A stretch of 64,000 nt of DNA from a bacterium (GCA_963662285.2 CAXXMV010000008.1:736001-800000), one strand, 5' to 3'. Shown: positions 17,410 to 32,792, counted from the first letter of the stretch. Numbers and translations: made by a program. The notes: a model not told the origin generated them from the sequence alone.

Positions 17410-19125
17410 CTACTTCACGATTTTCTTTCCTACTTTTTTCAGATAATCTGGAATATTCTTTACGGCATCCCGGTCATAGTCTTTTGTTTCTTCATCCAGG
17501 TCTTGCCACTCTTTCATATCTGGATGAGTTCGTTGTTTTATATCATTTGGCCCTTCAGTAAAATTTTCCAAGCGGTTAAAGGCAAGCCAGCGTTTGTGTT
17601 CCATTTCCGCAAGAATTTCTATATCTTCCTTAGAAAAATGATATTCTTCAACTTCGCTAGTTGCACATATGATTTGAAGACCAAGTGTGCGGAGTTTGAT
17701 TCCAATGTGCAGCGCTTGAAGTCTGTTGGATTCGCGATAATACATATTTAACTGATTCCAGGATTTGTGAGACTCCGTCATCCCAAAGTCATTTTTTTTT
17801 GCTGCGGATTCTAAATAATTTTTATGAATGACTTTTGCCAGATGGTCTAGTTCATCTTCAACAATACATTGTAATGTTGCCGTTTCATTCAATGCACCAA
17901 AATAGTTAAAAGCCGCATCCCGAAATTCAGAGTTCATATAACAGGATTGATCAACATCGGCAGGAATTCTTACAAAGATGGGAATTTTATATTTTTTTAG
18001 TTGTTGAGAAATATTATGAGGATATAAGAATGACTTGCGCTTTTCATTGAAACAAAATACAGCGGATATTATCGCATTTTTATTGTCCAGCCATTTCGTG
18101 AATTGTTTATCAAGGGTTTCCTTTTCAATGTCGGCATGAATAAATTCTATATCAGCCAGTGTATTGATTTGTGGATATTTTGCATATAATTCTTGCTTTC
18201 GGTTTTCCGAATCTAAATCGATAATAGATATTAATGTTTTTTGCTGATTTGCCATTTGATAGAGTTGAATGGCTTTAATAACTAAAATTTCCCCCAAACA
18301 TCCAAATCCTATAAGAATTAAATGGATAAAGTTATTGGAAGAAGGCATGATGGGGTTATAATCCAGCGGAGATTCATTTAATAGTTTCCTAGCCATGATC
18401 TCATACAAGTTGATGATTTGAAACTCTAATCCTGAATGCGGATTCAAGAATAAGTCTTTATCTCGTAAAACAATACACATTTTTGAGTCAATTATATGAA
18501 TATAGTTTCTAAGGATATTACATTTTTTTGATGCAACTGAATCTAACAAAGTCTGATGTACTTCATAAGCAAGTTCCATATTCTTAATATCTTCATCAAA
18601 AAAAGCAAATAAGTATGATGCTTTTTGAATACCTGCTTCAAGCAAAATAGAGTATTTTGTTGGTTCTGCTTGGATATGGTACAAATCCTGATTGTTGAAA
18701 TCATTTGAAACAATATCCAGACTAACATCAGCAAGCAGTACAACGTTTTTTTGCTTTTCTAACAAATCACAAATAAGATGTTTTGCCATTGGGGAATAGC
18801 CACAAACAATGTAGTGAGAATTAAAAAATCGAAGGATAAGTGATATATATTTTTTATAAAACAACGCGATGAATCCTAAAACCAATGTAAATGAGGATGT
18901 AACGACTCCCAGCCATCGAGCCAATTCTACTTGCCATGTTTGAGGAAGATCATCATATTCAAGAATAAATAATTGAATAGTGCTGTAAAGACGATCCCAA
19001 AGACTCCATGCAGGATGTTCAAAGAAATAACCCCAAAGCCCCAAAAATATTGTCCAACAGATTAGACAGGACAAAATTGAACCGCGATTGACTTCGATGT
19101 ATTTGATACCTTTCAAAATATTCAT
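17410..19125 (-). CDS. 2TM + RCK/TrkA-N-like Rossmann domains + RyR-repeat protein (channel-like)
   Basis: Two N-terminal TM helices flanking WDRLYSTIQLFILE; HYIVCGY and LILIGFGCLG Rossmann motifs; LAKVIHKNY...W..L...RESN and LAEMEHKRW...HPDMKEWQDLDEETKDYDR RyR repeats. Confidence 0.82.
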   Translation of the reverse strand: MNILKGIKYIEVNRGSILSCLICWTIFLGLWGYFFEHPAWSLWDRLYSTIQLFILEYDDLPQTWQVELARWLGVVTSSFTLVLGFIALFYKKYISLILRFFNSHYIVCGYSPMAKHLICDLLEKQKNVVLLADVSLDIVSNDFNNQDLYHIQAEPTKYSILLEAGIQKASYLFAFFDEDIKNMELAYEVHQTLLDSVASKKCNILRNYIHIIDSKMCIVLRDKDLFLNPHSGLEFQIINLYEIMARKLLNESPLDYNPIMPSSNNFIHLILIGFGCLGEILVIKAIQLYQMANQQKTLISIIDLDSENRKQELYAKYPQINTLADIEFIHADIEKETLDKQFTKWLDNKNAIISAVFCFNEKRKSFLYPHNISQQLKKYKIPIFVRIPADVDQSCYMNSEFRDAAFNYFGALNETATLQCIVEDELDHLAKVIHKNYLESAAKKNDFGMTESHKSWNQLNMYYRESNRLQALHIGIKLRTLGLQIICATSEVEEYHFSKEDIEILAEMEHKRWLAFNRLENFTEGPNDIKQRTHPDMKEWQDLDEETKDYDRDAVKNIPDYLKKVGKKIVK

Positions 19126-20210
19126 AACTGTATCGACTTCGTTAGCTTTGGAATCATTTGATAATCTCTATCTTCAAAGGGTTTTTGAAATTCCAATAGC
19201 AATTCTTTCATTATGGGATGTATTGCGCATTGCTCCTTTACGTGGCAGTATTGGCAGGTAGTTTTTCCGGTAATTCCCAATTTCCCGACACCCGCCAACT
19301 CACCGGATCCCGAAGCTTTTATCACGGTTCCTTTCCCTTGAGGTGTTAACCAGTAAGCAAAATGACAATGCAGCGGCTCGACTTCAGCCCAATCGCCTGC
19401 TTGTAGGGTTTTAACATTCCAAGTTAATGAGCCCCGCTGGTTCATTGGTTTAGACCAAATTTGCATTTCACCCGATAGAATCCCATAGATTTCAACAGCA
19501 GGAAGTCCGTGAACATGGACATCCTGTTTGTCTTTGGGCGAGAAAAAACTCCATGTAAATCCCAATCCTTGTTTTTGATAGGGTAAATAAGGATCGGCTA
19601 CACGGAGATTAAAGGCTCGATTTCCTGCAGAAAGAATTTCATCTACGGTCTGGCTTTTAACAACTCGGACTCCGGTTTCTTGCAACGAAGCCCAATGACA
19701 TGCCAATGCATCCATGGATGGAATTGTTGATGTTGTATCGATAACCTCAGAAAAATGACTTTGAACATAATTAGCTATCGTTCGGACATTTGGCTCTTTT
19801 GTATCTGCAAGAACTTCATTCAACAATTTCCAGGAAATAATATCTTTTTGCGTATTCAAGTTAGCCCAACCAGATTCAGTTAATGAGATTGTCACTGGGT
19901 ATAAATACCATTTTTTGTTTAGCCCCTCGTAGCGTGGACTATTATGATCGTTTAACAAAAGTGGCAATTCATCTTCTAAAAAGTAACTTCCTGGCTTCAG
20001 TCCAAGATCTTCCTTTAAGGGACGTACGAGTGCTTTATAAAGCGATTCCCCCTGACGTAACTTTGTTGAGGGAAATGTTGGATGTCCTTGTTTTTCTATT
20101 AGCAGAAATTGTACAGGGTCATGAGAAGATAATTTTCTGCAAATCAAACAATATAATACATACGAAATGGACATATCTCTGACATTTTCTCGATTTGATT
20201 TTTCACACAT
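19122..20210 (-). CDS. Degenerate Nudix-like domain fused to a cupin domain
   Basis: FPSTKLRQGESLYKALVRPLKEDLGL resembles a Nudix box lacking the RE..EE acids; HVHGLPAVEIYGILSG...AGDWAEVEPLHCH cupin metal motifs; ATGA overlap with the next gene. Confidence 0.65.
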   Translation of the reverse strand: MCEKSNRENVRDMSISYVLYCLICRKLSSHDPVQFLLIEKQGHPTFPSTKLRQGESLYKALVRPLKEDLGLKPGSYFLEDELPLLLNDHNSPRYEGLNKKWYLYPVTISLTESGWANLNTQKDIISWKLLNEVLADTKEPNVRTIANYVQSHFSEVIDTTSTIPSMDALACHWASLQETGVRVVKSQTVDEILSAGNRAFNLRVADPYLPYQKQGLGFTWSFFSPKDKQDVHVHGLPAVEIYGILSGEMQIWSKPMNQRGSLTWNVKTLQAGDWAEVEPLHCHFAYWLTPQGKGTVIKASGSGELAGVGKLGITGKTTCQYCHVKEQCAIHPIMKELLLEFQKPFEDRDYQMIPKLTKSIQL

Positions 20211-20234
20211 ATAGAATACCTATTTGGGCAAGTA

Positions 20235-20963
20235 TTTCCTGGTTCAACGTGAACTGGAGAATCACTCGTTCTGAGTTAGCACTTCTTTGTATAATAGTTT
20301 GAGTTTTTTAGGCAAGGGGAAACTATCAATCCAATGAATATCTTTTAATGGGAGGCGTAGAAGGAGTGGCCTTCCACACCCCACTCATCGTCTTGATGAG
20401 TTCCATCCGGCTATCCCTGGCGAGTTGCGCTCCCACAGAGCCCGCGTCCGTTTCACCGGATGCTATCATCTTCTTACATCACGTCAGCCGTGTCAAGAGT
20501 TTGCACGGCCTGCAGGTTGGCCTTTCTCCTTCCCGCGCTGCGTGAAGTTTACGATCCCATTCAGCGAAGATCGTGGGTCCGCGTCCGTCAGAGTTCCTTA
20601 AGACTTTTTTTACCTGAATGTGCTTCTCCATGAGTTCATCGAGTACTTCGTTCTTGCGTTTGAGTTTTTTTCCCAGCGCTGCGATTTTTCTCTCAGCGGT
20701 GGCAGACACGTCACTTGGGTTGGATTAGAAGGCGGCGGCTCCATTTTCAAAGAATTGCTTCTGTCAGCGGTAGAACATGGACGGTTGCAGCCCATACGTC
20801 TCACAGTTATCCGATACCTCCTGCCTGTCCACCAAATGGCGCTTCAAAATCCCGACTTTTCCCTGCGGGGTGCAATGCTTGAGTTTCTTTATGATCTCCT
20901 CCATTCGAATATGCTATGCTAACTCAAATGAAGTATTTCTCCATTTCCGTTTGAAACGGAGCA
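20235..20963 (-). mobile_element. Internally deleted IS3-family remnant
   Basis: orfA-like ILKRHLVDRQEVSD.CE.YGLQPSMFYR*QKQFFENGAAAF*...KNEVLDELM fused to orfB tail IFAEWDRKLHAARE; imperfect IRs ~20235-20261 and 20937-20963. Confidence 0.7.
20363..20460 (-). ncRNA. Putative IS-borne structured RNA, copy A
   Basis: TCCGGT-GAAACGGAC-GCGGG-CTC-TGTG GGAG CGCA-A-CTCGC-CAGGGATA-GCCGGA; covaries with copies at 33338 and 52624. Confidence 0.6.
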
Positions 20964-21094: not shown

Positions 21095-24000
21095 ATGCTT
21101 CATTGCCCTAAATGCCATTCTTCAGATTTGACATTTCGTAAAAAGAAAAACGTCTATATTTGCGATAACTGCGATCATGAGTTTCATACGAAACAATCAT
21201 TTACCGCAAAGCGGATTTTTATCAGTTACGGACATGATGAACATGCCGCGTTGGCAGAAAAACTCAAAAACGATCTTGAAAAGCGTGGACAACTTGTTTG
21301 GTTCGATCGCAACCGGATTCCGCTGGGGCCGGATTGGGAGCTCAGCATCGAACAAGGTCTGGCTTGGTTGAGAGAGAACAGGGAAAACAGTCTCTTTATC
21401 ATCATCATGACACCCCACTCCGTGCGGCGACCGGATGCTTATTGTCTAAATGAAATAGCTTATGCGGTTTCTAAAAAATTCGACATTTTACCGATCATGC
21501 TGGTATATTGCGAACCGCCACTGTCGATCCTTCGCTATCAATATCTAGATATGCAGGATTGTCTTCCAATCGATATTCACGCAACACGCTATGAGAAGCA
21601 TTTTGAACGACTGTGCCAAGCGATCGAGCAGAACCATCGTGATTTTGAGGGTAATCAAGCATATTTCATGAAGTATCTTGATCCATTTTCGCTCTCATTC
21701 AACGCTCAAGTATTATCGAAATTGCCGAATTTTGTGGGACGAGGGTGGGTGATAGAAGCAATCGACCGCTGGCTCAGCGATCCTGAAGGTTCAAAAGTGT
21801 TTTGGATCAGCGGCAAGGCGGGCATCGGAAAATCATCGTTGTCGGTTTGGCTTGTTGAGAATCGCCCGGAAATCGCCGCCTTTCACATGTGCGAGTATCG
21901 CAACAACAATAAATCCGATCCCAAAATATGTCTGCTGTTTCTAGTTTATCAACTCACCCAAGAACTGCCTGATTACCAGGAGAAACTATTACAGCGCGAC
22001 ATTTCCAAAGACGTGCTGGAAAGCGACGCTTCGACGTTGTTTGATTCGCTAGTGGTTGAGCCGCTTTCGATGATCAAAGCGCCTGAACACAACTTCGTGA
22101 TTTTGATCGATGCGTTGGATGAAGCATCGCAAGGTCGTGTTAACGACCTGGCCGAATTCATCGCCAACGACTTCAAGAAGACGCCTTCCTGGCTACGCCT
22201 CATTGTCACCAGCCGACCAGAGACGAATATCCAGACGTATTTTCAATCCATAGATCCCTTTGATTTGGACAAGGCCAAAGATCAGAACGAAAACGACATC
22301 AAAACCTACTTACAAACTGCCTTGAAGCCGTTTTATCCCGATCAACCCATTTCTTCCGGCGTCTTGCAGACCATCGTCGAAAAAAGCGAGATGGTTTTCA
22401 CCTACGTTCAACAAATCATCCAAGAATTGCACGCAGGCCGACTGTCGTTGGATCGGTTAGATGAATTTCCCCGCGGATTGGGCGAATACTTTTTTACATG
22501 GTTTAAGCGACAATTTCCCGAAGCCGACAAACGCAAGCATGACAGCCAGGGGACCGTAGAGATATACAAAAAGCAATGTCTCCCCTTGTTGGAACTCCTG
22601 GCTGTCGCCCAAGAGCCATTAGCCTTGAATACCATTAAATCGATTTTGAACTGGGGCGATTATGGCGATGACATCATTAACTTTTTCGGTTCATTGCTCA
22701 TCAAGGATGAGACGGTTCATCCCTTTCACAGTTCGCTGATGGATTGGTTGGAAGATTCACAACGGTCGTATCCCTATACCATCCGCGCCATCGCCGGGCA
22801 TCGCCGTATGATGGAGTATGGTTGGGGAGTGTATGAAGACAATGTCCAAACCCTTCCTGTGTATTTTTTAAGGCGCCTTCCTCTTCATCTAATGGCTTTG
22901 GAGGAATGGGATCGTATCCGACAGTTTCTTTGTGAACCGCATATTCTCTCTCATTGGTCGAGGGATAAGCAGCAATATGAATTGCTCGCGCTGTGGCGGC
23001 AAATTGGCGAGGCCCTGGACATGGTCGCTCTATATATGGAGGCGACTGTACATCTGGGGGCATCGGATTTTTCACCTCGGCGAAAGCAGCAGATTTTACG
23101 TTCGATCGCTTCGTTTTTGGCTTTGAACGGTCACTATTCGTCGGCGGAAACTCTTCTTCGACAAGCGTTAGCGATTCTGATGGAATTAGAGGAAGCGTCT
23201 TTGATCGATGTAACCGAATGCAAGGAGGATTTAGCGCGAGTTTATACACATCAATACAAGCAGGCCCCGGCGCTTCGTTTATTTAAGGAAGTGGAAAAAG
23301 CATATGAAAGCGAATTGGGCTTGGATCACTCTGATATGGCAGATTTATTCACCCATATGTCGGATTTGTATTATCAGCAATGCCGATTCACTGAGGCAGC
23401 GCATTATTGCCGTCAGGCTCTTAATATCCATAAGAAACATTTTCACTTCAATCACTCTCTTCTCGCTGATTCGCAGCATGCCTTGGCGAATATCAATCGC
23501 TCTCAAGGGTGTGGTGAAGAAGCGGAATCGCTCTATTTGAGATGTCTGAACATTCACCACGAAAACTTGGGAGATGATCATATCAAGGTCGCCGACGTGT
23601 TGCACGATTTGGCGATTCTCTACTTTCAACAAAATAACATTACGCAAGCGGAATACCATTTCAAACGCGCATTCGAGATTCGCAACCGTTTTTTGGGGGC
23701 GTCTCACCCTCAAATCGCGGATACATTGAGCGCGTTGGCGGACGTCATGGTCTCCAAAGGTGACCTTACGGGCGCCGAACGGTATTATCAAGACGCCTTA
23801 CAGATGCTGGAGACGTCATTCGGCAAAGAAAGCGTAAAGCGGGCGGACGTTATGGAGCGATTCGCCGAGCTCTATATACGTCAGGATCGCTTTGAACCGG
23901 CGATGCGGCTGCTCGATGAAACTCTCTCCATTCGAAATAAGTATTTGGGTCCCATTCAGTTCGACACCATGCGCGCACGGCGTAAGAGAACACAATTACA

Positions 24001-25720
24001 GCTACGTTATGAAGGACTGGATAAAAGAAGTGCGTTTGCTAATCGAAATGAGTTCCTTGATATCGAAAGCAGACTGGCTGAAACGTACGGTCAGGCAATC
24101 TATGATGCATTTGTAGAGAAAAAAAGTCCGGAACCGGGCGATTTACTGCCGCCCCAAACCGCCGTACAGTTACAAAATGATCTTGCCCTACTTAGGGATG
24201 TGATAGAAATACGCTTGTATGCGGATGTTCTTTCCTACACCATGGTTCAATACCGCATTTGTGAGCTCAGTGGAGATTGGGGCGATGTGGGAAAAGACCG
24301 CGCCGATTTTAATTTGATGCAAGTACTGCTTTCTCTTCCGCCCGATGAAGAGATCCAATTTCACCACTATTCACTATATGCAGAGGCGCGAGAGGAATTG
24401 ATGGGAACGCTGCATCTTGATCGCTTGAATAAAGAATCGATCGATGCGTTGAAAAAAAAGATGGAATGGTTCGAGTTAAAGATATTAAACAAAAAATTCA
24501 ATCTGAAATCGAAGGAGATTAATCGAATTCTCGCATGGTTGAAATCCAATCATCGATTGACAAACTCATCGGAATGCTTGTTATGGGGAAGAGCAGATTG
24601 CTTCGGTATGCAAAACAACACAATATCCATCTACCACCATGAGGAGATGCGTTCACCTTTGCTGGCCAATTATTGCGTATCATTTTCGAAAGATACGGAA
24701 ATCATCTTACGTGAAGAAGGGATCAACTATGTGATGTATATCAAATGGGCGAGTGTATTTAATGGTTCGGCGTTTGCGCCGACGGCTAAGGAACAAATCT
24801 CGGATCGTCTAAAACAATGCGCGCTGGAGGCCTGCCGAATCGGAACGCGACGGGATTTTGAACTGCAGAAAGATTTTTTCATCAGCGCCATGATGGAAAA
24901 TATTTTTTATTATGAATTAACCGACAAATCACTCAATGAGGTGGTTGGAAGTATATCCGTTGGAATGCAATCTGGATTAAGGAACTTCCACAATAAAAAT
25001 TTCCTGGCGCACGTGAATTGTCTTACATGCGAATGGCATCCGCTTGTCGATGGCAAAGTCAGCCCCATCGGCAATATTTTAGACACAGCTATCGAGAAGA
25101 GCGATTACAACCGCGCCTTGCAACTTCTATATATCTATCTCAGCGACGGCTGGTTTCTAGACACCGACATCTCTTTTATGTATCCCTATACTCATATTCT
25201 GTACCTTCTTATTCTTCCTTATCTGAAAGAGCCTTTGTATGTCGACTTTGAAATGATGCAAAAGGATTTGCCGACACTGTTTGATTTTATGATAAGTGAA
25301 TATAAGCGAATGCTCGAACATTTGCATAATTTCCTTCTTAAACGAAGTTATATTGATGAGGGAAAAGAATGCCATTTTGAGAATATCAAAGATAAGATTC
25401 TCTGCTTCCAAACACTTTATGAAACGTTGGGTACACATTTCGACACGGAATGGGTGAAATCAATTAATTTTTGGAGAAATTTTTTCAGCAGAGTTCTTCG
25501 AGAAGATCCCTTGTTTCATCAGGCATTGACGATTCAGATCCAAGAATATCAAATGGATTTCTATGCCAAATTGTTGAGTCGTTTTCATGGCCAAAAGCAA
25601 TACGATCCCAGCCCGGCTGGTGTTGAGAATTATATCATCGAACAAATGACGGATCGAGGGTACTCCATTCGAGATAAGCAGATGATCTATCTACCTTTAT
25701 CCGAACTTGGACTCGATTGA
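21095..25720 (+). CDS. Zn-ribbon + TIR + NACHT + TPR protein with an unassigned C-terminal region
   Basis: CPKC...CDNC; IFISYGH, VWFDR, YCLNEIAYA (TIR catalytic Glu); FVGRGW, GKAGIGKS, ILIDALDE, LIVTSRPE (NACHT); 42-aa LG.DH..A TPRs. Confidence 0.9.
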   Translation: MLHCPKCHSSDLTFRKKKNVYICDNCDHEFHTKQSFTAKRIFISYGHDEHAALAEKLKNDLEKRGQLVWFDRNRIPLGPDWELSIEQGLAWLRENRENSLFIIIMTPHSVRRPDAYCLNEIAYAVSKKFDILPIMLVYCEPPLSILRYQYLDMQDCLPIDIHATRYEKHFERLCQAIEQNHRDFEGNQAYFMKYLDPFSLSFNAQVLSKLPNFVGRGWVIEAIDRWLSDPEGSKVFWISGKAGIGKSSLSVWLVENRPEIAAFHMCEYRNNNKSDPKICLLFLVYQLTQELPDYQEKLLQRDISKDVLESDASTLFDSLVVEPLSMIKAPEHNFVILIDALDEASQGRVNDLAEFIANDFKKTPSWLRLIVTSRPETNIQTYFQSIDPFDLDKAKDQNENDIKTYLQTALKPFYPDQPISSGVLQTIVEKSEMVFTYVQQIIQELHAGRLSLDRLDEFPRGLGEYFFTWFKRQFPEADKRKHDSQGTVEIYKKQCLPLLELLAVAQEPLALNTIKSILNWGDYGDDIINFFGSLLIKDETVHPFHSSLMDWLEDSQRSYPYTIRAIAGHRRMMEYGWGVYEDNVQTLPVYFLRRLPLHLMALEEWDRIRQFLCEPHILSHWSRDKQQYELLALWRQIGEALDMVALYMEATVHLGASDFSPRRKQQILRSIASFLALNGHYSSAETLLRQALAILMELEEASLIDVTECKEDLARVYTHQYKQAPALRLFKEVEKAYESELGLDHSDMADLFTHMSDLYYQQCRFTEAAHYCRQALNIHKKHFHFNHSLLADSQHALANINRSQGCGEEAESLYLRCLNIHHENLGDDHIKVADVLHDLAILYFQQNNITQAEYHFKRAFEIRNRFLGASHPQIADTLSALADVMVSKGDLTGAERYYQDALQMLETSFGKESVKRADVMERFAELYIRQDRFEPAMRLLDETLSIRNKYLGPIQFDTMRARRKRTQLQLRYEGLDKRSAFANRNEFLDIESRLAETYGQAIYDAFVEKKSPEPGDLLPPQTAVQLQNDLALLRDVIEIRLYADVLSYTMVQYRICELSGDWGDVGKDRADFNLMQVLLSLPPDEEIQFHHYSLYAEAREELMGTLHLDRLNKESIDALKKKMEWFELKILNKKFNLKSKEINRILAWLKSNHRLTNSSECLLWGRADCFGMQNNTISIYHHEEMRSPLLANYCVSFSKDTEIILREEGINYVMYIKWASVFNGSAFAPTAKEQISDRLKQCALEACRIGTRRDFELQKDFFISAMMENIFYYELTDKSLNEVVGSISVGMQSGLRNFHNKNFLAHVNCLTCEWHPLVDGKVSPIGNILDTAIEKSDYNRALQLLYIYLSDGWFLDTDISFMYPYTHILYLLILPYLKEPLYVDFEMMQKDLPTLFDFMISEYKRMLEHLHNFLLKRSYIDEGKECHFENIKDKILCFQTLYETLGTHFDTEWVKSINFWRNFFSRVLREDPLFHQALTIQIQEYQMDFYAKLLSRFHGQKQYDPSPAGVENYIIEQMTDRGYSIRDKQMIYLPLSELGLD

Positions 25721-25798: not shown

Positions 25799-28700
25799 AT
25801 GCTAATCGATTTTCTGACTTATCAACGAGAGACCCAAAAGCAACCGGCTCCGTCTAAGCCACTCGATTGGACTTGCGGGGAATTGCTTTGTGATGTCAGC
25901 TATCTTCAATACACGGGGCCGTCGGAATGGGAGTGCACTGGTTTATTCGGCTCTTCACATACATGCAAAGATATACACCGGAATCGCCGTTTTCTCTGCT
26001 TGGTTCCACGGGAAGAAATCTATCGCAAAGGTTGGGTGCGTAAGCGATTTGCGTTTGAGTACAAACGGCTTCTCACCGCCTCTCCCTCCCCCTTTCTGAT
26101 GATTCCCGTAGGATGGATCGAAAGGGTTGATTATGTCATGTGCATCTTGGAATGGAATGACAGGGTTCCGCTGCAAACCTTGTTAGAATCATCACAATCG
26201 GCGCCATCCTCTTCTCCACTTCCCTTTGCCGATCCCCAAGTGCGAGCGCGCGATGCACTCGAATTGTTTTTCCAAGTCGCCACGGGAATGAAACAGTTGC
26301 ATGACAAAACAGGGTTGATTCATCACAATCTTCATCCCGGAACCCTCTTTTGGAGTCAAGAGCGTCAGGCGTTTCAAATCAGCGGTTTTCTACTTTCGCA
26401 TAGTCTGTATTGGACTCGGGAGGATGAACCTGAGTTTGAAACGACATTTCCGGACAACAATGTATCTTCAGAAGATAGTATCTGCGCATTTCAATTTCCC
26501 GAATCCGTCCGTCCCTATCTTCCTCCAGATGTTCTCGATAATCCCCTGCATGCGGAACCCTGCGACGATATATATTCTCTCGGCATGATCGTATATCAAA
26601 TTCTGCATAATTTTAACGATGAAGTCGTCAAGCGGTTTCCAACGGATGGTTTTGAAACGCCCGAGTGTGGAAGTGATGGGCTTCTTACCTTACTGCGCCG
26701 ATGCCTGGCGACGCAGAGGGATGATCGATGCATTTCGTGGGACGCTCTTCTCGACGATGTACGTAATATGTTGTCTGAAAATAAGAGTCGATCCCTGCAA
26801 AAACCCCAACTCATTCTTTCATGCGACGACTGTGTGAATCTATCCTGGGCGCACATCGACATGAGTAAATACAGTCGCGCCGGGGAATGGGCCAACCAAG
26901 CCCTCGACATCGAGTCGAATAATTCTTTCGCTCAAATAGCCAAGATGATCACTCTTGGGAAAATCGGTCGCTTGGATGAAGCCTTTGAAATTGGATCATC
27001 CTTACTTCGTAGAGAGCCGGAAAACGCCGAAGCGCATAATTATATGGGTTATTTGTATTACCAAAAAGGAGATTTCAAAACCAGTCTTGAACATTTTGAA
27101 TCCAGTTTGCGTTACGATTCCAACCTAGCCTGCAACTATAACAACCTCACTGTACTCTATCTTGTTCACGAACGCCTGAAAGAAGCGCGGGACTGCTTGA
27201 TGCGGGGCTTGGAACGCTTTCCCTTCGATCCCGATCTATTGGTTTCATGGGTTAGTGTATCCGAATCGCTAGGAGACCTCCCGAGCGCATTGGCCCATCT
27301 CGAAGAAAAACTCGCGGACGATTGGGATGGCTCCATTCACAATGCGTATGGTATGGTGCTGGAAAAAAAAGGCCGCCTCGATGACGGAATAATCCGGCTA
27401 GAGGCCTTTCTTTCGACCAGGCCGAGCGCCCATCTCGCTTGGAACCGGTTGGGAATTCTTTCAGAAAACGCCGGACATTTGGAAAAAAGTCTGGAAAGTT
27501 TTCAAAAGGCCATCCGTCTCAAACCACATGACGAAAACTATGTGGGCAATTGCCTACGGATTTTAAACTCATTGGGTTGTTTGTCTGAGGGAATTCAACT
27601 TGGAGAACAATGGTTGTCCTGTTATTATCCCGCAATGTCTGTTAGCAGCCTATTGGGAGTGCTATTGACTAATGCGGATGAGATAGAACGCGCGGTAGAG
27701 CCTCTTCAGAACGCTCAACGCATTGCCCCTTGCGATGAGACATTGGCGGGCAATCTGGTTCACAGTCTGCGCATTGCCGACCAGGTAAATCAAGCCATTG
27801 AATTCGGCGCCGAATGGTCAGTAACTCATAAAGGTGGATCGTATTTTTGGAATCAATTGGGGAACGCCTATTTTGGCTTGGAGCGTTTTGCCGAAGCAAT
27901 TCCCTGTTATCAGAAAGCTCTGGAATTCGAACCGGATGATGCAGAAATCGCATCCAATTTATTAAATGCCTATTTTAAAATAAACGATTTTTCCGCTTGT
28001 ATGCAATTCGCCGAAGCATGGCTTGCAGACCATCAGGGCAACGAGAATTTTCATACTTACTTAAGCATCTCCTTCATCAACACGAATCAGATGGAAAAAG
28101 CCATCTCTACCTTAAAAACCGCTATCAGCAAGCAGCCTGAATTAGCAAATTCACTGAAAGAAGTGATTGCCAAATTAACTCAGAGTGGGCAGGAACAACG
28201 GGCGATTGAATTCGGCGAACTCTGGCTCCTACACAATCCTCCGACGCTGGATGTTTTGAATCAAATCGGAATCGTCCATTACGAAAACAAACGCTTTGAA
28301 GAGGCGACCGCCTGTTTTCGAAACGCACTCGAACTGGAACCAAGTAATAAAACTGTCGCATTGAATATAATGAATTCCTACGATAACTTGAATCAGTATC
28401 AGCGGTGCATCGAATTTGGAGAAAATTGGCTCCAACACAATCCTCCGACGCTGGATGTTTTGAATCTTATCGGAATCGTCCATTACAAAAACAAACGCTT
28501 TGAAGAAGCGACCGCCTGTTTCCAAAACGCGCTCGAACTGGAACCAAGTAATAAAACTGTCGCATTGAATATAATGAATTCCTACGATAACTTGAATCAG
28601 TATCAGCGGTGCATCGAATTTGGAGAAAATTGGCTCCAACACAATCCTCCGACGCTGGATGTTTTGAATCTTATCGGAATCGTCCATTACAAAAACAAAC

Positions 28701-29842
28701 GCTTTGAAGAAGCGACCGCCTGTTTCCAAAACGCGCTCGAACTGGAACCAAGTAATAAAACTGTCGCATTGAATATAATGAATTCCTACGATAACTTGAA
28801 TCAGTATCAGCGGTGCATCGAATTTGGAGAAGATTGGCTTAATCGGCACTCGCCAGATGATACAATATTCGGACATCTTGTCGATGCGTACACTCATTTA
28901 GGAAAGTATGATAAAGCAGAACAAGCGTTAGTAAAAGCACCGAAAGAATATCAATATTTGAGATGTATACTAAACGCTTACTATCAATCCAAACAATTTG
29001 ACAAAGCCATCGATTGTGCAGAACAATGGAAAGATCAATACAATCTTGAGCCGGAGTTATGGAATTCCTTGGGACAAATCCATTATGATAAAAAACAATA
29101 TTCGGAAGCCTTAGAATGCTATGAAGAAGCATCGCGATTGTCCCCTGAAAATCTAGATTACCTTAATAACTCTGCTTTGGCCTTGTCCTCATTAAAAAAA
29201 CACGATGAAGCGATTGCCCGAATGGGCTATGTACTTGAGCAACAGCCTAGTACTTTACTTTATGCACAAAATTACTTTACATGCCTTAAAGACGCCAACC
29301 ACAAAGAAAAAGCTGTTGAATTTGCGAAAGGGTGGATGGAAGCAAATACTGTGGATGAAATTTTATTGAATTCTGTAGGACTAACGTTAGATGATTTAAA
29401 GAAAGATAAAGATGCAATTGAATGCTACCAGAAGGCTCACGAACTGAATCCTCAAAATGCCGGGTATTTAAATAATATGGGAATGAGTTTCAAAGCACTC
29501 GGCCAATTCGATCAAGCCATTACTTTAACGAAGCAAGCCATAGAACTGGAGCCGAAAAATATTGTTATTATTGTGAATCATCTTATCTGTTTGAAAAGTG
29601 CAGACCGTCTGGATGAAGCGATCCAAATCGGCAATGCTTGGATTCAAGAACATGGCGAAAAACCAATAGTTTTAAATCAATTGGCGTTGATTCACGAACA
29701 AAAATTTGATTTTGAAAATGCGCTGGTCTGTTATGATTCCACACAAGAGAAAGAGAAATACCTTGCCGCATTAATAGATTACGGCCGGTATGAAGCCCTG
29801 AATCAAGCCTTGGAATGGTATGACTGGATGGAGACGGCGTGA
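25799..29842 (+). CDS. Inactive-looking Ser/Thr kinase domain + long TPR array
   Basis: QVATGMKQLH, LIHHNLHPGTL, ISGFLL, YLPPD, DIYSLGMIVY, LLRRCLA kinase subdomains; many TPRs; ATG at 25799 has a GAGG RBS (ORF track opens at 25745). Confidence 0.8.
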   Translation: MLIDFLTYQRETQKQPAPSKPLDWTCGELLCDVSYLQYTGPSEWECTGLFGSSHTCKDIHRNRRFLCLVPREEIYRKGWVRKRFAFEYKRLLTASPSPFLMIPVGWIERVDYVMCILEWNDRVPLQTLLESSQSAPSSSPLPFADPQVRARDALELFFQVATGMKQLHDKTGLIHHNLHPGTLFWSQERQAFQISGFLLSHSLYWTREDEPEFETTFPDNNVSSEDSICAFQFPESVRPYLPPDVLDNPLHAEPCDDIYSLGMIVYQILHNFNDEVVKRFPTDGFETPECGSDGLLTLLRRCLATQRDDRCISWDALLDDVRNMLSENKSRSLQKPQLILSCDDCVNLSWAHIDMSKYSRAGEWANQALDIESNNSFAQIAKMITLGKIGRLDEAFEIGSSLLRREPENAEAHNYMGYLYYQKGDFKTSLEHFESSLRYDSNLACNYNNLTVLYLVHERLKEARDCLMRGLERFPFDPDLLVSWVSVSESLGDLPSALAHLEEKLADDWDGSIHNAYGMVLEKKGRLDDGIIRLEAFLSTRPSAHLAWNRLGILSENAGHLEKSLESFQKAIRLKPHDENYVGNCLRILNSLGCLSEGIQLGEQWLSCYYPAMSVSSLLGVLLTNADEIERAVEPLQNAQRIAPCDETLAGNLVHSLRIADQVNQAIEFGAEWSVTHKGGSYFWNQLGNAYFGLERFAEAIPCYQKALEFEPDDAEIASNLLNAYFKINDFSACMQFAEAWLADHQGNENFHTYLSISFINTNQMEKAISTLKTAISKQPELANSLKEVIAKLTQSGQEQRAIEFGELWLLHNPPTLDVLNQIGIVHYENKRFEEATACFRNALELEPSNKTVALNIMNSYDNLNQYQRCIEFGENWLQHNPPTLDVLNLIGIVHYKNKRFEEATACFQNALELEPSNKTVALNIMNSYDNLNQYQRCIEFGENWLQHNPPTLDVLNLIGIVHYKNKRFEEATACFQNALELEPSNKTVALNIMNSYDNLNQYQRCIEFGEDWLNRHSPDDTIFGHLVDAYTHLGKYDKAEQALVKAPKEYQYLRCILNAYYQSKQFDKAIDCAEQWKDQYNLEPELWNSLGQIHYDKKQYSEALECYEEASRLSPENLDYLNNSALALSSLKKHDEAIARMGYVLEQQPSTLLYAQNYFTCLKDANHKEKAVEFAKGWMEANTVDEILLNSVGLTLDDLKKDKDAIECYQKAHELNPQNAGYLNNMGMSFKALGQFDQAITLTKQAIELEPKNIVIIVNHLICLKSADRLDEAIQIGNAWIQEHGEKPIVLNQLALIHEQKFDFENALVCYDSTQEKEKYLAALIDYGRYEALNQALEWYDWMETA
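28231..28842 (+). repeat. Three tandem 204-bp (68-aa) near-identical repeats in the TPR array
   Basis: ACACAATCCTCCGACGCTGGATG at 28231, 28435 and 28639. Confidence 0.95.
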
Positions 29843-29908: not shown

Positions 29909-32386
29909 ATGAACCTACACTGGTATGACGAACAAATTCAACTTTACAAAAAACTTACTTCCCTCTATGAAAAAATGGCGGCGGGATTAAAACGGCGTCT
30001 GCAAATCGCCATGTCCGAGATGGGGATGGACGCTATCGTTCAGGCGCGTGCAAAAACCATCTCCAGCTATGCAGAAAAGATCGTCCGCAAACAGAGCAAA
30101 TATGCCGATCCTATCCGTCTGATCACCGACCTCTGCGGACTGCGCATCATCGTCGAACGATTGGATGAAGTTCGCCGATTGTGCGATTTCATTGAAACCG
30201 AGTTTGAGATTGATGAAGGAAACAGTGAAGATTGCCTCGAACGTCTGAAGATCAATGAGTTCGGCTACTTATCCAATCATTACATCGTGATGTTGACTTC
30301 CCCCGAAAAAGCTGAAGCGTTCGGCATTACGACGAGCGATCTCGATATCATAAAAACAGTCAAGGGGCTGGATTTTCCGATCAAGGCCGAGATCCAAGTA
30401 CGGACGCTACTGCAACATGCATGGGCGGTTTTCATACATAAGCATCTCTATAAAAGGAAATGGAACCTACCGCGGGCGTGGCTCCGCGAAACATCCCGTA
30501 TCTCGGCTATGTTGGAGGATGCGGACGATTCGTTTTCCCGACTGGTCGAGGAAATTGACGTCTATAAGACACAGTACGGCGCCTACATGACGCCAGATCA
30601 GATGAACAGTGAAATCGAGATGCTGCAATTGATTCAACGTTACGATCCCGGTAATGAATCTCTTGCCCGTGAAATTGCTCGAATCGCGAAGGAAAGCGGA
30701 CGCTGGTCATTGGTGGTGGAAACATTATTGCCGTTTCGCGAATCCGCCGATCCCGACTCTCTTCTCGATCTCGGCAACGCCATTTTGCACATGAAAGATC
30801 CGCTCCAAGTCGATGAAGGCCACCGCCTGATTGAGCGCGCCATTGAATTGTCTGCTAAAAACGCACCAGCCTATATCACCTTAGCCCAATTGTGCAGAGA
30901 AAGCGAACAGACAAAACGTTTGCGCTATTACGAAATGGCTTTTCAGGCCGATCCAAACGAACCCATGGCATTTTGTGGTTTTCTGCTAAACAAAATCATA
31001 GCAGAGCGAAATCGAGATTTTCTAGCATTGCTTCGCCCTCTTATAGAAAATGCCGTCAAACGTTGTAATGATCGAATACGCGCCGGTGTCGATGCTTCCT
31101 CTTCGTATTGTCATATCGGAATATTGCAGATGGCGTTGGGTCGAATGGAATCGAGCGCATCCGCCTTTGCCAAAGCGGCGACATTAAAACCGGTTCCTCG
31201 CGTATTTTATGAATATCGAGATTCGGTGCGTTTATTAATAAATCAGGTTAACAATCAATGGCCCGAACTACTCATACTCGACCAACTATTCGATCTCTTC
31301 AACAAAGCAGAGGCGCTTCAAAGCGGTTCAATCTCTGACATTTCAAACGACTTGCAGACGACGAGCCTGATACGGATTCCCGTTGTCATTGTGGCAGGCA
31401 GCTGCAATGAAGATTCGTCTCACCTCATGGAGGCGCATCGAAAATTGATGACAGAATCGTTTCAAGGATTTCAAGGAACAATTGTATCAGGCGGAACCCG
31501 ATCAGGCGTCAGTGGTCTGGTGGGAGATATGTCGTTGGATATGGGCAACGCCGTGAAACTGGGATATATACCCAAAGACATCGAATCAAATCAACTGCAT
31601 CCTGCTTTCCTCATCCGGAGAACGAAGGGATCAACCTTTTCGACGCTGGAACCAATCCAGTATTGGATAGATTTGCTACAATCTGGGATTTGTCCATTGC
31701 AAGTAAAATTGATCGGCTTCGGTGGTGGGGTGCTTTCAGCGTTTGAATATCGCTTGGCGCTGGCAATGGGCGCCTGGGTGGGCATATTGCCTGATAGCAG
31801 GCGTGAAGCCGCCCGCCTGCTGGACGACGATGATTGGAATGGCTCACCGAACCTTCTTCGCATTCCGTTGGATGCTGGGATTTTACGTTCCTTCATTCAC
31901 CCTGCGCCGTCGGCGGCGTTTGCGTCGGATGATCGCGAGCGAATGGCACGGGGCATTCATGGCGAATATCGAAAAAAACATGTGAAGCGATTGCTGCAAT
32001 ACGAGCCTTCCGCCGTCGAGTGGGAATATCTGAGAGACGATTTGAAAGAGTCTAATCGGCGACAGGCCGATCACTATTGCATGACGTTGCAATCGGCCAG
32101 TCTCAACATTCGGAAGGCGCTGAGGAGGAGTGAAATACAAATCATTGAATTCACTGATCGTGAAATAGAAGTCATGGCCGAAAGAGAACATTCGCGTTGG
32201 ACCGTGGAGCGCTTGATGGATGGATGGCGTCTGGGAGAGCAGAACACCGACCGAAAAGAAAGCCCCTATCTGGTCTCCTGGATGGACCTTTCCGACGATA
32301 TTAAGGACTACGACCGAAACGCAGTCAAGGACATTCCACGGATTTTAGAAGAATACGGTTATGAAGTGTATCGTGAAACCATCTGA
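29909..32386 (+). CDS. RelA/SpoT synthetase domain + TPR + SLOG-like Rossmann + RyR-repeat protein
   Basis: RAKTISSYAEK, DLCGLRII, GYLSNHY, EIQVRTLLQHAWA; VVIVAGS, IVSGGTRSGV, GFGGG...FEYRLA (SLOG-like); MARGIHGEY...W..L.DDLKESN and MAEREHSRW...LVSW.DLSDDIKDYDR (RyR). Confidence 0.85.
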   Translation: MNLHWYDEQIQLYKKLTSLYEKMAAGLKRRLQIAMSEMGMDAIVQARAKTISSYAEKIVRKQSKYADPIRLITDLCGLRIIVERLDEVRRLCDFIETEFEIDEGNSEDCLERLKINEFGYLSNHYIVMLTSPEKAEAFGITTSDLDIIKTVKGLDFPIKAEIQVRTLLQHAWAVFIHKHLYKRKWNLPRAWLRETSRISAMLEDADDSFSRLVEEIDVYKTQYGAYMTPDQMNSEIEMLQLIQRYDPGNESLAREIARIAKESGRWSLVVETLLPFRESADPDSLLDLGNAILHMKDPLQVDEGHRLIERAIELSAKNAPAYITLAQLCRESEQTKRLRYYEMAFQADPNEPMAFCGFLLNKIIAERNRDFLALLRPLIENAVKRCNDRIRAGVDASSSYCHIGILQMALGRMESSASAFAKAATLKPVPRVFYEYRDSVRLLINQVNNQWPELLILDQLFDLFNKAEALQSGSISDISNDLQTTSLIRIPVVIVAGSCNEDSSHLMEAHRKLMTESFQGFQGTIVSGGTRSGVSGLVGDMSLDMGNAVKLGYIPKDIESNQLHPAFLIRRTKGSTFSTLEPIQYWIDLLQSGICPLQVKLIGFGGGVLSAFEYRLALAMGAWVGILPDSRREAARLLDDDDWNGSPNLLRIPLDAGILRSFIHPAPSAAFASDDRERMARGIHGEYRKKHVKRLLQYEPSAVEWEYLRDDLKESNRRQADHYCMTLQSASLNIRKALRRSEIQIIEFTDREIEVMAEREHSRWTVERLMDGWRLGEQNTDRKESPYLVSWMDLSDDIKDYDRNAVKDIPRILEEYGYEVYRETI

Positions 32387-32792
32387 ACCTTGGGCGTCAC
32401 CCATTCCAACGGCACGAGTCATCATCGTCAATGAAGAGGGCGCTGTATTGCTATTGAAACGTGGTGAGGGCGACTATGGTGCCGGTCTGTGGTGCTTACC
32501 CGGTGGGAAGGTGGATTATGGAGAATGCCTCAAGGAGGCGGCCCGTCGTGAACTGCATGAAGAAACATCGATCCACCCAGACCATCTACGTTTTTTATTC
32601 TATCAGGATGGATTACCCAAATTTGATCAGGATATGCATTGCATCGAACTTTTTTTTCAATGCGTATACTCCGGTCCCGTCTCCGTCAATTGCGAATCCA
32701 TCGATTTTGCCTGGGTTAAAGAGAAAGGAATACAAGATTATCCTATGGCTTTCAATCACGACCGAGCATTGAGCCGATATTGGGAAACATGA
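32361..32792 (+). CDS. Nudix hydrolase
   Basis: Nudix box GGKVDYGECLKEAARRELHEET; overlaps the upstream stop. Confidence 0.92.
   Translation: MKCIVKPSEPWASPIPTARVIIVNEEGAVLLLKRGEGDYGAGLWCLPGGKVDYGECLKEAARRELHEETSIHPDHLRFLFYQDGLPKFDQDMHCIELFFQCVYSGPVSVNCESIDFAWVKEKGIQDYPMAFNHDRALSRYWET

Follow-up and report, generated by a model that had tools for sequence, protein, structure and literature searches.

A widely recurring, as yet uncharacterised gene set that probably links TIR/STAND sensors with a RelA/SpoT enzyme under SLOG control, with Nudix hydrolases and with a nucleotide-gated channel

Introduction

Do six large genes in two divergent groups, here named A to F, form a single immunity system that signals through nucleotides? 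The question was raised by a first-pass annotation of a bacterial window (the whole 64,000-nt stretch of DNA analysed here). The accessible parts of three reports give the proposal its background: the SLOG domain of ThsA is activated by TIR-made cADPR isomers (PMC11204291), the LSDAT/MHR1-2 region of TRPM2 binds ADPR (PMC13143021), and the RY12 domain of RyR1 binds ADP/ATP, its prokaryotic homologues being suggested as nucleotide sensors (PMC13642953).

Results

The six open reading frames and their domains were borne out (Table 1), together with the tight junctions described for them. A and B overlap by 4 nt and E and F by 26 nt, while gaps of 24 nt and 66 nt separate C from D and D from E. 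The placement of the genes in a tRNA-integrated island was also correct. The island measures 35 kb and its integration site is tRNA-Arg; of the 56-nt direct repeats that were found with the integrase (2332-2387 and 37248-37303), the right copy overlaps the 3' part of tRNA-Arg(tcg). The 50-nt repeat in the divergent intergenic region recurs 18 times at 86% identity outside this spot of the genome, and a further copy, at 80%, lies in the window (33342-33391). Since this IS-end-like repeat separates the divergent groups, the present juxtaposition of A/B and C-F may be secondary.

Further genes of the island deserve consideration. The patatin gene lies within it and is a possible member of the system. 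The DUF4062-STAND protein, located beyond the coordinates of the first-pass annotation, is a second candidate sensor. The putative sensor genes at this locus are C, the DUF4062-STAND gene and the broken TIR-WD40 gene. The TGA-bearing sequence of the latter was identical in two contigs from one sample, and the segment matched by the TIR remnant (5575-5790) encodes the N-terminal portion of its TIR domain.

Table 1. Features of the island and its boundaries in the 64,000-nt window
Position	Strand	Feature	Evidence
2332..2387	.	Left island boundary, att-like direct repeat of the 3' part of tRNA-Arg	56 nt, 96% identical to 37248-37303
2577..3647	-	Patatin-like phospholipase	Pfam Patatin 1.6e-26; PADLOC 'Effector Phospholipase' PDLC00758 1.2e-41
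3685..5871	-	TIR-WD40 gene, broken by one in-frame TGA at 5458-5460	TIR_2 7.9e-12 (5461-5871), WD40 1e-60 (3685-5442)
10853..17053	-	DUF4062-STAND NTPase-TPR-HEAT-FGE-sulfatase protein, 2066 aa	Pfam
17141..17355	-	Degraded TIR coding-sequence remnant, between A and the 2066-aa gene	74-78% identical to 5575-5790
17410..19125	-	A: 2TM membrane part, two Rossmann/RCK domains, C-terminal RY12-like RyR, 571 aa	TrkA_N 1.6e-7, RyR 1.6e-6
19122..20210	-	B: degenerate Nudix-like N-domain, metal-site cupin, C-terminal Cys cluster, 362 aa	Homologue alignment
20408..20457	+	50-nt multicopy repeat, solo copy, IS-end-like, in divergent intergenic region	Repeat search
21095..25720	+	C: Zn-ribbon, TIR, NACHT-type STAND NTPase, TPR, 550-aa C-terminal region, 1541 aa	Pfam
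25745..29842	+	D: pseudokinase, then long TPR array, 1365 aa	Pkinase 4.4e-6 (below curated cut-off), many TPRs; PADLOC MkoA 1.1e-18
29909..32386	+	E: RelA/SpoT-TPR-SLOG(LSDAT)-RyR protein, system core, 825 aa	Pfam RelA_SpoT 1.5e-15, RyR 3.2e-14
32361..32792	+	F: MutT-like Nudix hydrolase, 143 aa	NUDIX 3.4e-21; PADLOC PDC-S07 1e-13
33505..34323	-	IS21 IstB helper ATPase, insertion sequence within island	Pfam IstB_IS21 4.2e-76
36123..37172	-	Tyrosine integrase of island	Pfam Phage_integrase 7.1e-25
37259..37332	-	tRNA-Arg(tcg), integration target and right boundary	ARAGORN; Rfam tRNA 66.9 bits; direct repeat

Protein E consists of a RelA/SpoT nucleotide pyrophosphokinase domain (residues 1-225), a TPR linker (226-484), an LSDAT-type SLOG domain (485-672) and an RY12-like RyR domain (673-825). 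The catalytic-motif residues R47, K49, K57, D74, R79, E161, Q163 and R165 were invariant in 30 aligned sequences. In the PDB, the RelA domain matched RelQ/RelP-type (p)ppGpp synthetases (E=1e-9 to 5e-3), and solved toxSAS were absent among the matches at E<=0.01.

The SLOG assignment of the first-pass annotation survived profile search by way of relatives: E itself matched LSDAT_prok weakly and below significance (E=0.057), 22 of 30 aligned homologues were matched (best 7.4e-9), and the paralogue in the same genome scored 27.9 bits against a cut-off of 25.4 bits. Residues 485-672 adjoined LSDAT_prok clusters in a language-model atlas (score 0.89), which was taken as a lead only. A profile of the SLOG region yielded nothing significant among PDB sequences (best 0.2; TRPM2-like chain 1.6), and SLOG was absent among the best 50 Foldseek matches of the full-length E model. 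The RyR domains called in E and A were both recognised by Pfam. A phmmer match to a RyR chain (2.3e-17) aligned the A-E-x-x-H-x-x-W helix motif, and Foldseek matched both models to RyR3 Repeat12 with a TM-score, normalised to the target, of 0.56-0.57. The physical coupling through RyR repeats that had been proposed found no support, and the accessible part of PMC13642953 offers an alternative, namely that domains of RY12 type sense nucleotides.

The Nudix box of F is intact (G49-x5-E55-x7-R63-E64-L-x-E67-E68) except that its last G is S. Genes E and F were adjacent in 50 of 80 E loci by tblastn and in 42 by HMM, across many bacterial and archaeal phyla, and natural E-Nudix fusions occur (P0030, P0048, P0104, P0107). 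The conserved core is E plus F, smaller than the six-gene set.

In C, Pfam detected TIR_2 (3e-15), NPHP3_N (2.6e-25), NACHT (4e-4) and TPR_10/12 (about 1e-36). Its motifs include the catalytic TIR residue Glu120 in C-L-N-E, the Walker A motif G-K-A-G-I-G-K246-S and the Walker B motif L-I-D-A-L-D-E. C is a candidate for both sensor and signal generator. The C-terminal 550 aa were found in none of the 80 E loci and are unique to the present locus. None of the Avs or bNACHT models of PADLOC matched C, the PADLOC matches covering TIR or TPR parts only. For D, the pseudokinase call held, as alignments with GCN2/PERK place H-H-N at the HRD position and the DFG aspartate is missing. Its TPR array was recently amplified, with three copies at a spacing of 204 nt and 91-92% identity (28190-28839). 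No relatives of D were found below E=1e-10 among 1.84 billion representatives; it is an orphan found at this locus only, probably a lineage-specific accessory.

The AF2 model of A (pLDDT 80.5) displays helices at residues 14-36, 42-51 and 64-100, followed by two Rossmann domains, the second with invariant G273, G275 and G278. Its best Foldseek match was the GsuK channel (E=1.1e-10, 543-599 aligned columns). The earlier channel call therefore stands at the level of fold, and A is a predicted ligand-gated cation channel of 2TM, pore-loop-like type. The K+ selectivity filter T-V-G-Y-G is absent; at that position, assigned by topology and not by a printed structural alignment, the loop in the window reads L-E-Y-D-D and the family consensus is T-L-E-S-G-S. 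Pfam gave no ion-channel match for A. Homologues of A were present in 16-18 of the 80 E loci. The RyR domains of A and E formed separate clades with matching sub-groups (FastTree, no support values), and A appears from these sequence comparisons to be co-inherited with E.

Two Nudix-type proteins had been announced. This was right for F, whereas B is not a plain Nudix protein; it is a degenerate Nudix domain fused to a cupin. Its match to Pfam NUDIX (1.4e-3, 19.1 bits) is under the 21.1-bit cut-off. The Nudix box is not satisfied, with R-P for R-E, E-D for E-E and no leading G, and the family consensus there is R-P-M-E-E-D-L-G-L. The 334 homologues, at 51-62% identity, share invariant H232, H234, E240, H283, C319, C322 and C328; the language-model atlas also gave a lead to a cupin. 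Natural fusions of B homologues to canonical Nudix domains were observed. B occurred in only 1-2 of the 80 E loci. TIR was found in 21 of 80 B loci (median length 4.9 kb) and any partner in 37, rising to 19 of 26 for B loci of at least 8 kb. One B locus (L156) contains DUF4062-STAND, TIR, E, Nudix, A and B all together, with a RyR-RyR protein.

To evaluate recurrence, partners were sought within 8 kb of E at 80 loci, which span about 15 phyla, Archaea among them. TIR proteins were found in 22 loci, DUF4062/STAND NTPases in 19-24, any sensor class in 40 (20 of the 36 loci whose two flanks each span 5 kb or more) and additional RyR proteins in 11, counts that come from related genomes and from HMMs built on the same loci and are not independent trials. 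All ten sampled TIR neighbours were confirmed as TIR_2 by Pfam, and 14 of 29 TIR proteins lay within 1 kb of E, frequently as its immediate neighbour. Variable TIR or DUF4062/STAND proteins, rather than one family, occupy the sensor slot. No partner was seen within 8 kb in 21 loci (9 of 36 with full flanks), and E is therefore able to act by itself or with genes located elsewhere.

As had been expected of a genuine system, Nudix, TIR or DUF4062-STAND, and RCK-RyR membrane proteins adjoin RelA-SLOG-RyR genes in other phyla. The idea of six genes as one fixed set had to be abandoned, since the kinase-like domain of D had no match in any of the 80 E loci or the 80 B loci, and the NACHT family of C recurred in only 2 of 80 E loci (L017, L078). 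The combination itself was seen again in a second, integrase-associated island of the same genome, which carries TIR-TPR, B-like (54% identity), Nudix, RelA(x2)-SLOG-RyR and DUF4062-NACHT-WD40 genes. Together, the two loci hold three of the six TIR_2, all three DUF4062 above cut-off, all three RyR and both B matches of the 7.29-Mb genome. The distribution is patchy: of 35 genomes in the phylum, two contain E and a single one contains B.

Such loci might be independent systems sharing a defence island, in which C (with D) would be an NAD+-depleting TIR-STAND abortive infection system, E and F a toxSAS-like toxin and antidote, and A and B unrelated genes. A TIR-STAND protein that has an effector domain of its own can work unaided. 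The patatin effector, TIR-WD40 gene, IS21 and IS-end remnants of the island, the rarity of the C family and lack of D beside E, and the partnerless E loci are consistent with independence. However, the class-level association is far above background: the TIR frequency near E contrasts with only 6 TIR_2 matches in the 7.29 Mb of the present genome and a TIR_2 signal in only 4 of 14 control genomes. The co-inheritance of A with E, the B-Nudix and Nudix-E fusions and the repetition of the combination at the second locus also argue against independence, which is considered unlikely.

Discussion

We lean towards reading the locus as a defence-type conflict system, acquired by horizontal transfer, in which several genes signal through nucleotides: E and F are the core, the sensors vary, and A and B are optional conserved partners. 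Its TIR/STAND proteins would probably sense infection and be connected with a RelA/SpoT enzyme under SLOG control, with Nudix hydrolases and with a channel gated by nucleotides. A housekeeping-type stress circuit, in which the alarmone synthetase uses SLOG and RY12 to gauge the nucleotide or energy state and adjusts a cation channel, Nudix enzymes providing turnover, would agree with the resemblance of the RelA domain to RelQ/RelP, with the description of RY12 as an ADP/ATP status sensor in the accessible part of PMC13642953, with NAD/ADP bound by GsuK-type channels according to PDB entry titles, and with the conservation of B, unusual for arms-race proteins. Nevertheless, the island lies at a tRNA with an integrase and the second copy is integrase-linked, the genes were seen in no more than 1-2 of the 35 genomes in the phylum, the linkage to TIR and STAND-repeat proteins is consistent, and the TPR repeats of D were recently amplified; such a circuit is quite improbable.

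In the conflict system, a STAND sensor would recognise the invader and oligomerise, and its TIR (or TIR-like DUF4062) domain would turn NAD+ into an ADP-ribose-type signal. Binding of this signal by the SLOG domain of E would free the RelA/SpoT domain, which may make a (p)ppNpp-type alarmone or, less likely, pyrophosphorylate tRNA, leading to a growth stop. The RY12 domains of A and E would respond to an adenine-type nucleotide, which may be the product of E itself; the A channel would then open and the membrane depolarise. F, and perhaps B, would hydrolyse the nucleotides, preventing self-intoxication and resetting the system, while D may be a local accessory or co-sensor.

That E is instead a Tox-RelA-type toxin modifying macromolecules (e.g. 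a tRNA 3'-end pyrophosphokinase), with Nudix removing the modification and with neither a second soluble messenger nor an alarmone-gated channel, is the least probable reading: Tox-RelA domains are known as RNA-modifying effectors of immunity, according to the accessible part of bioRxiv 10.64898/2026.10.19.760177, the PADLOC candidate model PDC-S33 matches the RelA region of E (9.5e-13), and stand-alone relatives of this domain are present on plasmids and phages, but its sequence and fold matches are only to RelQ/RelP-type nucleotide synthetases, and the RY12 common to E, A and the extra RyR proteins would be left unexplained.

The first-pass annotation did not recognise the gene set as a named defence system, and no PADLOC system matched the full set. 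No description was found in the searchable literature, coverage of which was incomplete. In the accessible main text of Kaur et al. 2020 on conflict systems of multicellular bacteria (PMC7159879), RelA is only a rare domain in vWA ternary systems, and RyR and DUF4062 have 0 occurrences. The gene set is uncharacterised and widely recurring.

The signalling conflict system resembles Thoeris in that a TIR gene neighbours the gene of an effector with a SLOG-superfamily ligand-binding domain, and in the proposed logic of a TIR-made NAD-derived signal that would activate the effector. Unlike in Thoeris, the effector enzyme is RelA/SpoT instead of SIR2, TM or Macro, the SLOG belongs to the LSDAT (TRPM) clade and differs from that of ThsA, TIR occurs in fusion with NACHT-TPR or gives way to DUF4062-STAND, and Nudix, cupin, RY12 and channel components are added. 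None of the ThsA models in PADLOC matched E (only PDC-S33 did), and ThsB was marginal against C (1.3e-3).

With toxSAS/CapRel the locus shares a RelA/SpoT synthetase with intact motifs, mobility, a patchy distribution and a tightly coupled neighbour gene that could neutralise E. In contrast to a small, essentially single-domain toxin, E has 825 aa and contains TPR, SLOG and RY12 domains for regulation, its PDB matches are RelQ/RelP and not solved toxSAS, and its partner is a Nudix protein, a class that, to our knowledge, is not among the described toxSAS antitoxins. The N-terminal TIR effector/signalling domain, STAND NTPase and TPR/WD40 sensor array recall Avs/bNACHT and NTP-dependent conflict systems, although C matched no Avs or bNACHT model; FGE-sulfatase, HEAT, patatin and kinase accessories in patchy, mobile loci are likewise shared with the NTP-dependent systems. 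The topology of A (TM1, short helix, loop, TM2, then tandem RCK) is that of GsuK/MthK, from which it differs by the missing TVGYG filter and Pfam channel match and by the C-terminal RY12.

In animals, TRPM2 combines an LSDAT SLOG, a cation channel and a NUDT9-homology Nudix domain, and ryanodine receptors carry the RY12 nucleotide clamp. The same LSDAT-type SLOG, Nudix and RY12 modules are found here beside a predicted cation channel. They are spread over separate operon proteins, the channel is of 2TM RCK type and not a 6TM TRP or RyR pore, and an alarmone synthetase is present. The system would be built from sensor modules that are also used by animal TRPM2 and ryanodine-receptor channels.

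Island and gene layout

All six open reading frames of the immunity locus proposed in the first-pass annotation were located exactly where it had placed them (genes A to F in the table). They form two divergent groups, B followed by A on the minus strand and C, D, E and F on the plus strand, with overlaps of 4 nt between A and B and of 26 nt between E and F; the other junctions are tight. The proposed location in a tRNA-integrated island was confirmed: an att-like direct repeat overlaps the 3' part of a tRNA-Arg(tcg) gene, which is adjoined by a tyrosine integrase gene (Pfam). The integrated island is about 35 kb long, and its other cargo comprises IS21 genes, a patatin phospholipase gene, a WD40 gene and a gene for a 2066-aa DUF4062-STAND-TPR-HEAT-FGE-sulfatase protein.

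Features of the locus and its island, in window positions
Feature	Position	Strand	Description
A	17410-19125	-	channel-like RCK-RyR protein
B	19122-20210	-	Nudix-like/cupin protein
C	21095-25720	+	TIR-NACHT-TPR protein
D	25745-29842	+	pseudokinase-TPR protein
D repeats	28190-28839		TPR array, three tandem copies
E	29909-32386	+	RelA/SpoT-TPR-SLOG-RyR protein, core of the locus
F	32361-32792	+	MutT-like Nudix protein
Direct repeat	2332-2387 and 37248-37303		56 nt, 96% identical
tRNA-Arg(tcg)	37259-37332
Patatin gene	2577-3647	-	phospholipase
TIR-WD40 gene	3685-5871	-	in-frame TGA at 5458-5460
DUF4062 gene	10853-17053	-	DUF4062 at the N-terminus
TIR-like stretch	17141-17355		74-78% identity to 5575-5790
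50-nt repeat	20408-20457		diverged copy
50-nt repeat	33342-33391		inverted copy
Unconfirmed IS3 OrfA candidate	20479-20904	-	ORFs
Sigma-70-like site	20976-21005	+	90 nt upstream of C

A 50-nt IS-end-like repeat occurs in about 20 copies genome-wide, 18 of them outside the window; the two window copies, one between B and C and the other between F and the IS21 genes, bracket C-D-E-F. The copy between B and C parts the divergent gene groups, which counts against reading them as a single system. An IS3 OrfA remnant was not confirmed: Pfam returned 0 families for the ORFs concerned, and the 50-nt multicopy repeat was found there instead. The sigma-70-like site upstream of C (TTGACA, 18 nt, TAAAAT, with a TG extension) has 11/12 matches, and shuffled sequence contains such sites at least as often. 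A look for RNA data sets covering 25000-33000 of the window listed none.

The patatin phospholipase was matched by PADLOC models of CBASS-type phospholipase effectors (1.2e-41); its gene lies beside a broken TIR-WD40 gene, with no cyclase nearby. The break is a single in-frame stop inside the TIR domain, the frame being unchanged on either side; two sequencing runs of one sample, possibly that from which the genome came, yielded contigs with identical letters. Upstream of the DUF4062-STAND gene, about 215 nt resemble the segment encoding the TIR N-terminus in the TIR-WD40 gene. They appear to be a TIR fragment in decay, a hint that sensor genes of the island have recombined with one another.

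Domain architecture of the proteins

In E, a RelA/SpoT domain (Pfam, 1.5e-15), whose motif residues are invariant across 30 homologues, is followed by a TPR linker, a Rossmann-like region of LSDAT-type SLOG and a C-terminal RyR domain. The AF2 model is confident (pLDDT 83.7), and its full-length Foldseek matches are mostly TPR proteins. By both sequence and fold, the RelA domain matched RelQ/RelP-type synthetases. The SLOG call was upheld by the family: the window protein alone gave E=0.057, which is not significant, LSDAT_prok was matched by 22/30 homologues, the same-genome paralogue scored above the curated cut-off, and the neighbours of the region in a language-model atlas were LSDAT_prok clusters. 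A profile of the SLOG region (35 sequences) found nothing significant among PDB sequences. The RyR call also stood, with a Pfam match of 3.2e-14, a phmmer match of 2.3e-17 to RyR chains in which the A-E-x-x-H-x-x-W helix was aligned, and a Foldseek match to Repeat12 of RyR3. Full-length E was absent from the plasmid and phage collections: none of the 16 and 4 matching records, respectively, covered at least 80% of the query, and the RelA domain alone was matched.

F is a 143-aa MutT-like protein with an intact Nudix box, and a C-terminal Nudix domain is fused to E itself in four homologues (P0030, P0048, P0104 and P0107). Shorter relatives of E (P0108-P0123) carry RelA_SpoT with TPR-S in place of SLOG-RyR, some with a fused Nudix domain; this arrangement suggests interchangeable sensor modules on one RelA/SpoT enzyme.

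C starts with a zinc ribbon, followed by a TIR domain (TIR_2, 3e-15) with Glu120 within a C-L-N-E motif and by a NACHT-type STAND NTPase (NPHP3_N, 2.6e-25) with Walker A G-K-A-G-I-G-K246-S and Walker B L-I-D-A-L-D-E. TPR_10/12 repeats come next, and the last approximately 550 residues gave no family match. The kinase match of D was weak (4.4e-6, under the Pfam cut-off), and PADLOC MkoA matched with 1.1e-18. When aligned to GCN2 and PERK, D showed H-H-N in place of H-R-D in the catalytic loop and no DFG aspartate; it is therefore a pseudokinase, as first proposed. An exhaustive search of 1.84 billion representatives returned no relative of the kinase-like region below 1e-10 and 35 weak matches between 1e-6 and 1e-3, and a word-indexed search found only the region itself. 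Within the TPR array, two-TPR units were recently amplified: three tandem copies, spaced 204 nt apart, are 91-92% identical. D appears to be a fast-changing accessory specific to its lineage.

The N-terminal part of A consists of two membrane helices, between which lie a short helix and a loop; it is followed by two Rossmann/RCK domains and a RyR domain. The best match of its model (pLDDT 80.5) was the full-length GsuK channel (E=1.1e-10), followed by TrkA rings, CASTOR/DMI1, MthK and Slo1. At the position of the K+ channel motif T-V-G-Y-G, placed by topology alone, the loop reads L-E-Y-D-D (T-L-E-S-G-S in the A family), and no recognisable selectivity filter was found in A. If A is a channel, it is probably not K+-selective.

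B belongs to a family with 334 matches at 51-62% identity. The first-pass annotation had grouped it with the Nudix-type proteins, which holds for its Nudix-like N-terminal domain; B is not a plain Nudix enzyme, as the box is degenerate (R-P-M-E-E-D-L-G-L) and the invariant residues H232, H234, E240 and H283 make up a metal site of the cupin type. A C-x-x-C...C cluster lies at the C-terminal end. The atlas points the same way on the cupin assignment, as a lead only, and the family profile gave only marginal Nudix matches against the PDB (0.19-0.8). In P0163, P0171 and P0197, B is fused to a canonical Nudix domain.

Gene neighbourhoods

The neighbourhoods of 80 near-full-length E homologues were collected, with one genome per species and up to 10 kb on each side; they were drawn among 552 pattern-confirmed relatives, many of which may share the RelA domain only. 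The source bacteria belong to Chloroflexota, Planctomycetota, Actinomycetota, Gemmatimonadota, Acidobacteriota, Bacteroidota, Desulfobacterota-type MAGs, Nitrospirota, KSB1, Omnitrophota and others, and the archaea to methanogens, Bathyarchaeia and Halobacteriota.

Within 8 kb of E, an F-like Nudix gene was present at 50/80 loci by tblastn and at 42/80 by the HMM built here, nearly always as the adjacent gene on the same strand. A TIR protein was found at 22 loci, DUF4062 and/or STAND at 24, and any sensor class (TIR or DUF4062/STAND) at 40, or at 20/36 of the loci with at least 5 kb on both flanks. An A-type membrane protein occurred at 16-18 loci and a further RyR-bearing protein at 11; none of these partners was seen at 21. 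Since the HMMs were built from these loci and the genomes are related, the counts are descriptive and do not represent independent tests. All ten TIR matches sampled were TIR_2 by Pfam, with varied architectures (TIR-TPR, TIR-WD40, TIR-FGE-sulfatase, TIR-STAND, propeller-PKD-TIR), and 14 of 29 TIR proteins lay at most 1 kb from E. The expectation that the six genes co-occur elsewhere was borne out for the Nudix, TIR and A partners; D and the C-terminal region of C occurred at 0/80 loci and the NACHT family of C at 2/80. B was found at 1-2/80. Another candidate for an effector under RY12 control is a family of about 876 aa, with two C-terminal RyR repeats after a 700-aa N-terminal part without family assignment; it recurs adjoining E and A, at L016:4688-7318 and at 10 loci besides.

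Around B, 80 metagenome loci with a median length of only 4.9 kb were compared. A TIR gene was present in 21, often directly downstream of B, and DUF4062/STAND in 13, SLOG in 14, RelA in 11 and Nudix in 11; among the 26 loci that measure 8 kb or more, 19 had one partner or several. L156 brings together DUF4062-STAND, TIR, E, Nudix, A, B, a second DUF4062-STAND and a RyR-RyR protein. L101 holds B, A, one gene without assignment and E; L058/L102 hold DUF4062-STAND, E, Nudix, B and TIR.

The cleanest internal control for the gene linkage is a second locus of the same genome, L086 (G000:C8:1136000-1155900), which lies 390 kb away and is also beside an integrase. It encodes a TIR-TPR protein, an ISL3 transposase, a paralogue of B at 54% identity, a Nudix protein, a RelA(x2)-SLOG-RyR protein of 1016 aa whose RelA domain is duplicated, and a DUF4062-NACHT-WD40 protein of 1541 aa. 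In this 7.29 Mb genome, 3 of the 6 TIR_2 matches, 3/3 DUF4062 matches above cut-off, 3/3 RyR matches and 2/2 B matches fall at the two loci. A further DUF4062 start about 5 kb downstream at L086 is a duplicate with an identical score. Of 35 species genomes of the phylum, 2 contain E and 1 contains B, a patchiness of the kind shown by mobile conflict genes.

The RyR domains of A and E fall into two separate clades in a FastTree (mafft alignment, without support values) with matching sub-groups, such as L077/L079/L080, L068/L101/L156, L009/L021 and L031/L033. The pattern is consistent with a long shared inheritance rather than with exchange of domains.

Relation to known systems

Taken together, the modules are RelA/SpoT, LSDAT SLOG, RY12, Nudix, Nudix-like cupin, RCK-RY12 channel and TIR or DUF4062-STAND. 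As the first-pass annotation had anticipated, no PADLOC system matches this combination; partial matches were limited to the candidates PDC-S33 and PDC-S07 and to TIR/TPR models. No published account of RelA/SpoT with SLOG and RyR, or of this gene set, was found in the literature searched. Parts of the architecture may already be listed in Burroughs et al. 2015 (NAR) and in Burroughs & Aravind 2020 (J Bacteriol). In the available text of the eLife 2020 survey (PMC7159879), RelA is mentioned only as a rare domain, and its main text has 0 occurrences of RyR and DUF4062. The locus resembles Thoeris in its proposed signalling logic and NLR/Avs in its sensors, and the effector enzyme of E shares its theme with toxSAS/Tox-RelA, as presented in bioRxiv 10.64898/2026.10.19.760177.

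Proposed mechanism

Domain identities and gene linkage are observed, and the catalytic motifs of the TIR, NACHT and RelA/SpoT domains and of F are intact. We infer the order of signalling by analogy with Thoeris, in which, according to the account in PMC11204291, a SLOG-containing effector is activated by TIR-made cADPR isomers; in TRPM2, ADPR is described as bound by the LSDAT/MHR1-2 region (PMC13143021). A TIR or TIR-like sensor would make an NAD-derived signal, and the SLOG of E would read it and release the RelA/SpoT domain. As the RelA domain resembles RelQ/RelP alone in sequence and fold, its product is more likely a soluble alarmone than a modified tRNA. Breakdown of the messenger or messengers would fall to F and perhaps to B, whose tight linkage to TIR genes suggests action on the NAD-derived side. 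Points against this mechanism, besides the IS-end-like repeat, are the quarter of E loci that lack a nearby partner, the non-significant SLOG match of the window protein together with the negative PDB profile search, and the missing selectivity filter of A.

The RyR repeats had been proposed to couple E physically to the channel. The RY12 domain of RyR1 is reported as a clamp for ADP/ATP (PMC13642953), which makes a shared-ligand role of the RyR domains of E, A and the extra RyR proteins likelier than this coupling. Complex prediction with the RyR regions of E (668-825) and A (418-571) gave a score of 0.02 and a mark of 0.32, which is no answer either way.

DUF4062 may be a TIR-like enzyme domain. 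In hhalign, DUF4062 and TIR alignments gave a pairwise E=0.033 over 101 columns, a lead only, as compared with 0.17-0.22 over 13-15 columns for the SLOG and RyR controls. The conserved C-L-x-E-I of DUF4062, the N-terminal domain of the 10853-17053 protein, was placed on the TIR catalytic-Glu column.

A two-tier second-messenger immune cascade, which is an unlikely reading, would run as follows. TIR or DUF4062-STAND sensors would make an NAD-derived signal, the LSDAT-type SLOG would read it and switch the RelA/SpoT enzyme on, the alarmone would be read by RY12 clamps and open a dedicated RCK-type cation channel, and Nudix and cupin enzymes would erase both messengers.

Significance

Should the proposal hold, alarmone synthesis and a gated channel would become new outputs of TIR/NAD-derived immune signalling, and NLR-like sensing would acquire a link to the enzyme family of the stringent response. 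The system would also give a function to prokaryotic RyR (RY12) domains, whose role is left open in a 2026 structural paper. The E family is widespread in environmental bacteria and archaea and the partner B is unusually well conserved, which leaves a compact, testable set of E, F, A, B and one TIR gene.

LSDAT SLOG, Nudix and RY12 are the ligand sensors of the animal TRPM2 and RyR calcium channels. With all three found next to a putative cation channel in a single prokaryotic operon, the animal modules have a concrete candidate source. If the cascade is true, the TRPM2 (SLOG, Nudix) and ryanodine-receptor (RY12) modules would descend from one prokaryotic conflict system, which already coupled both module sets to a cation channel.
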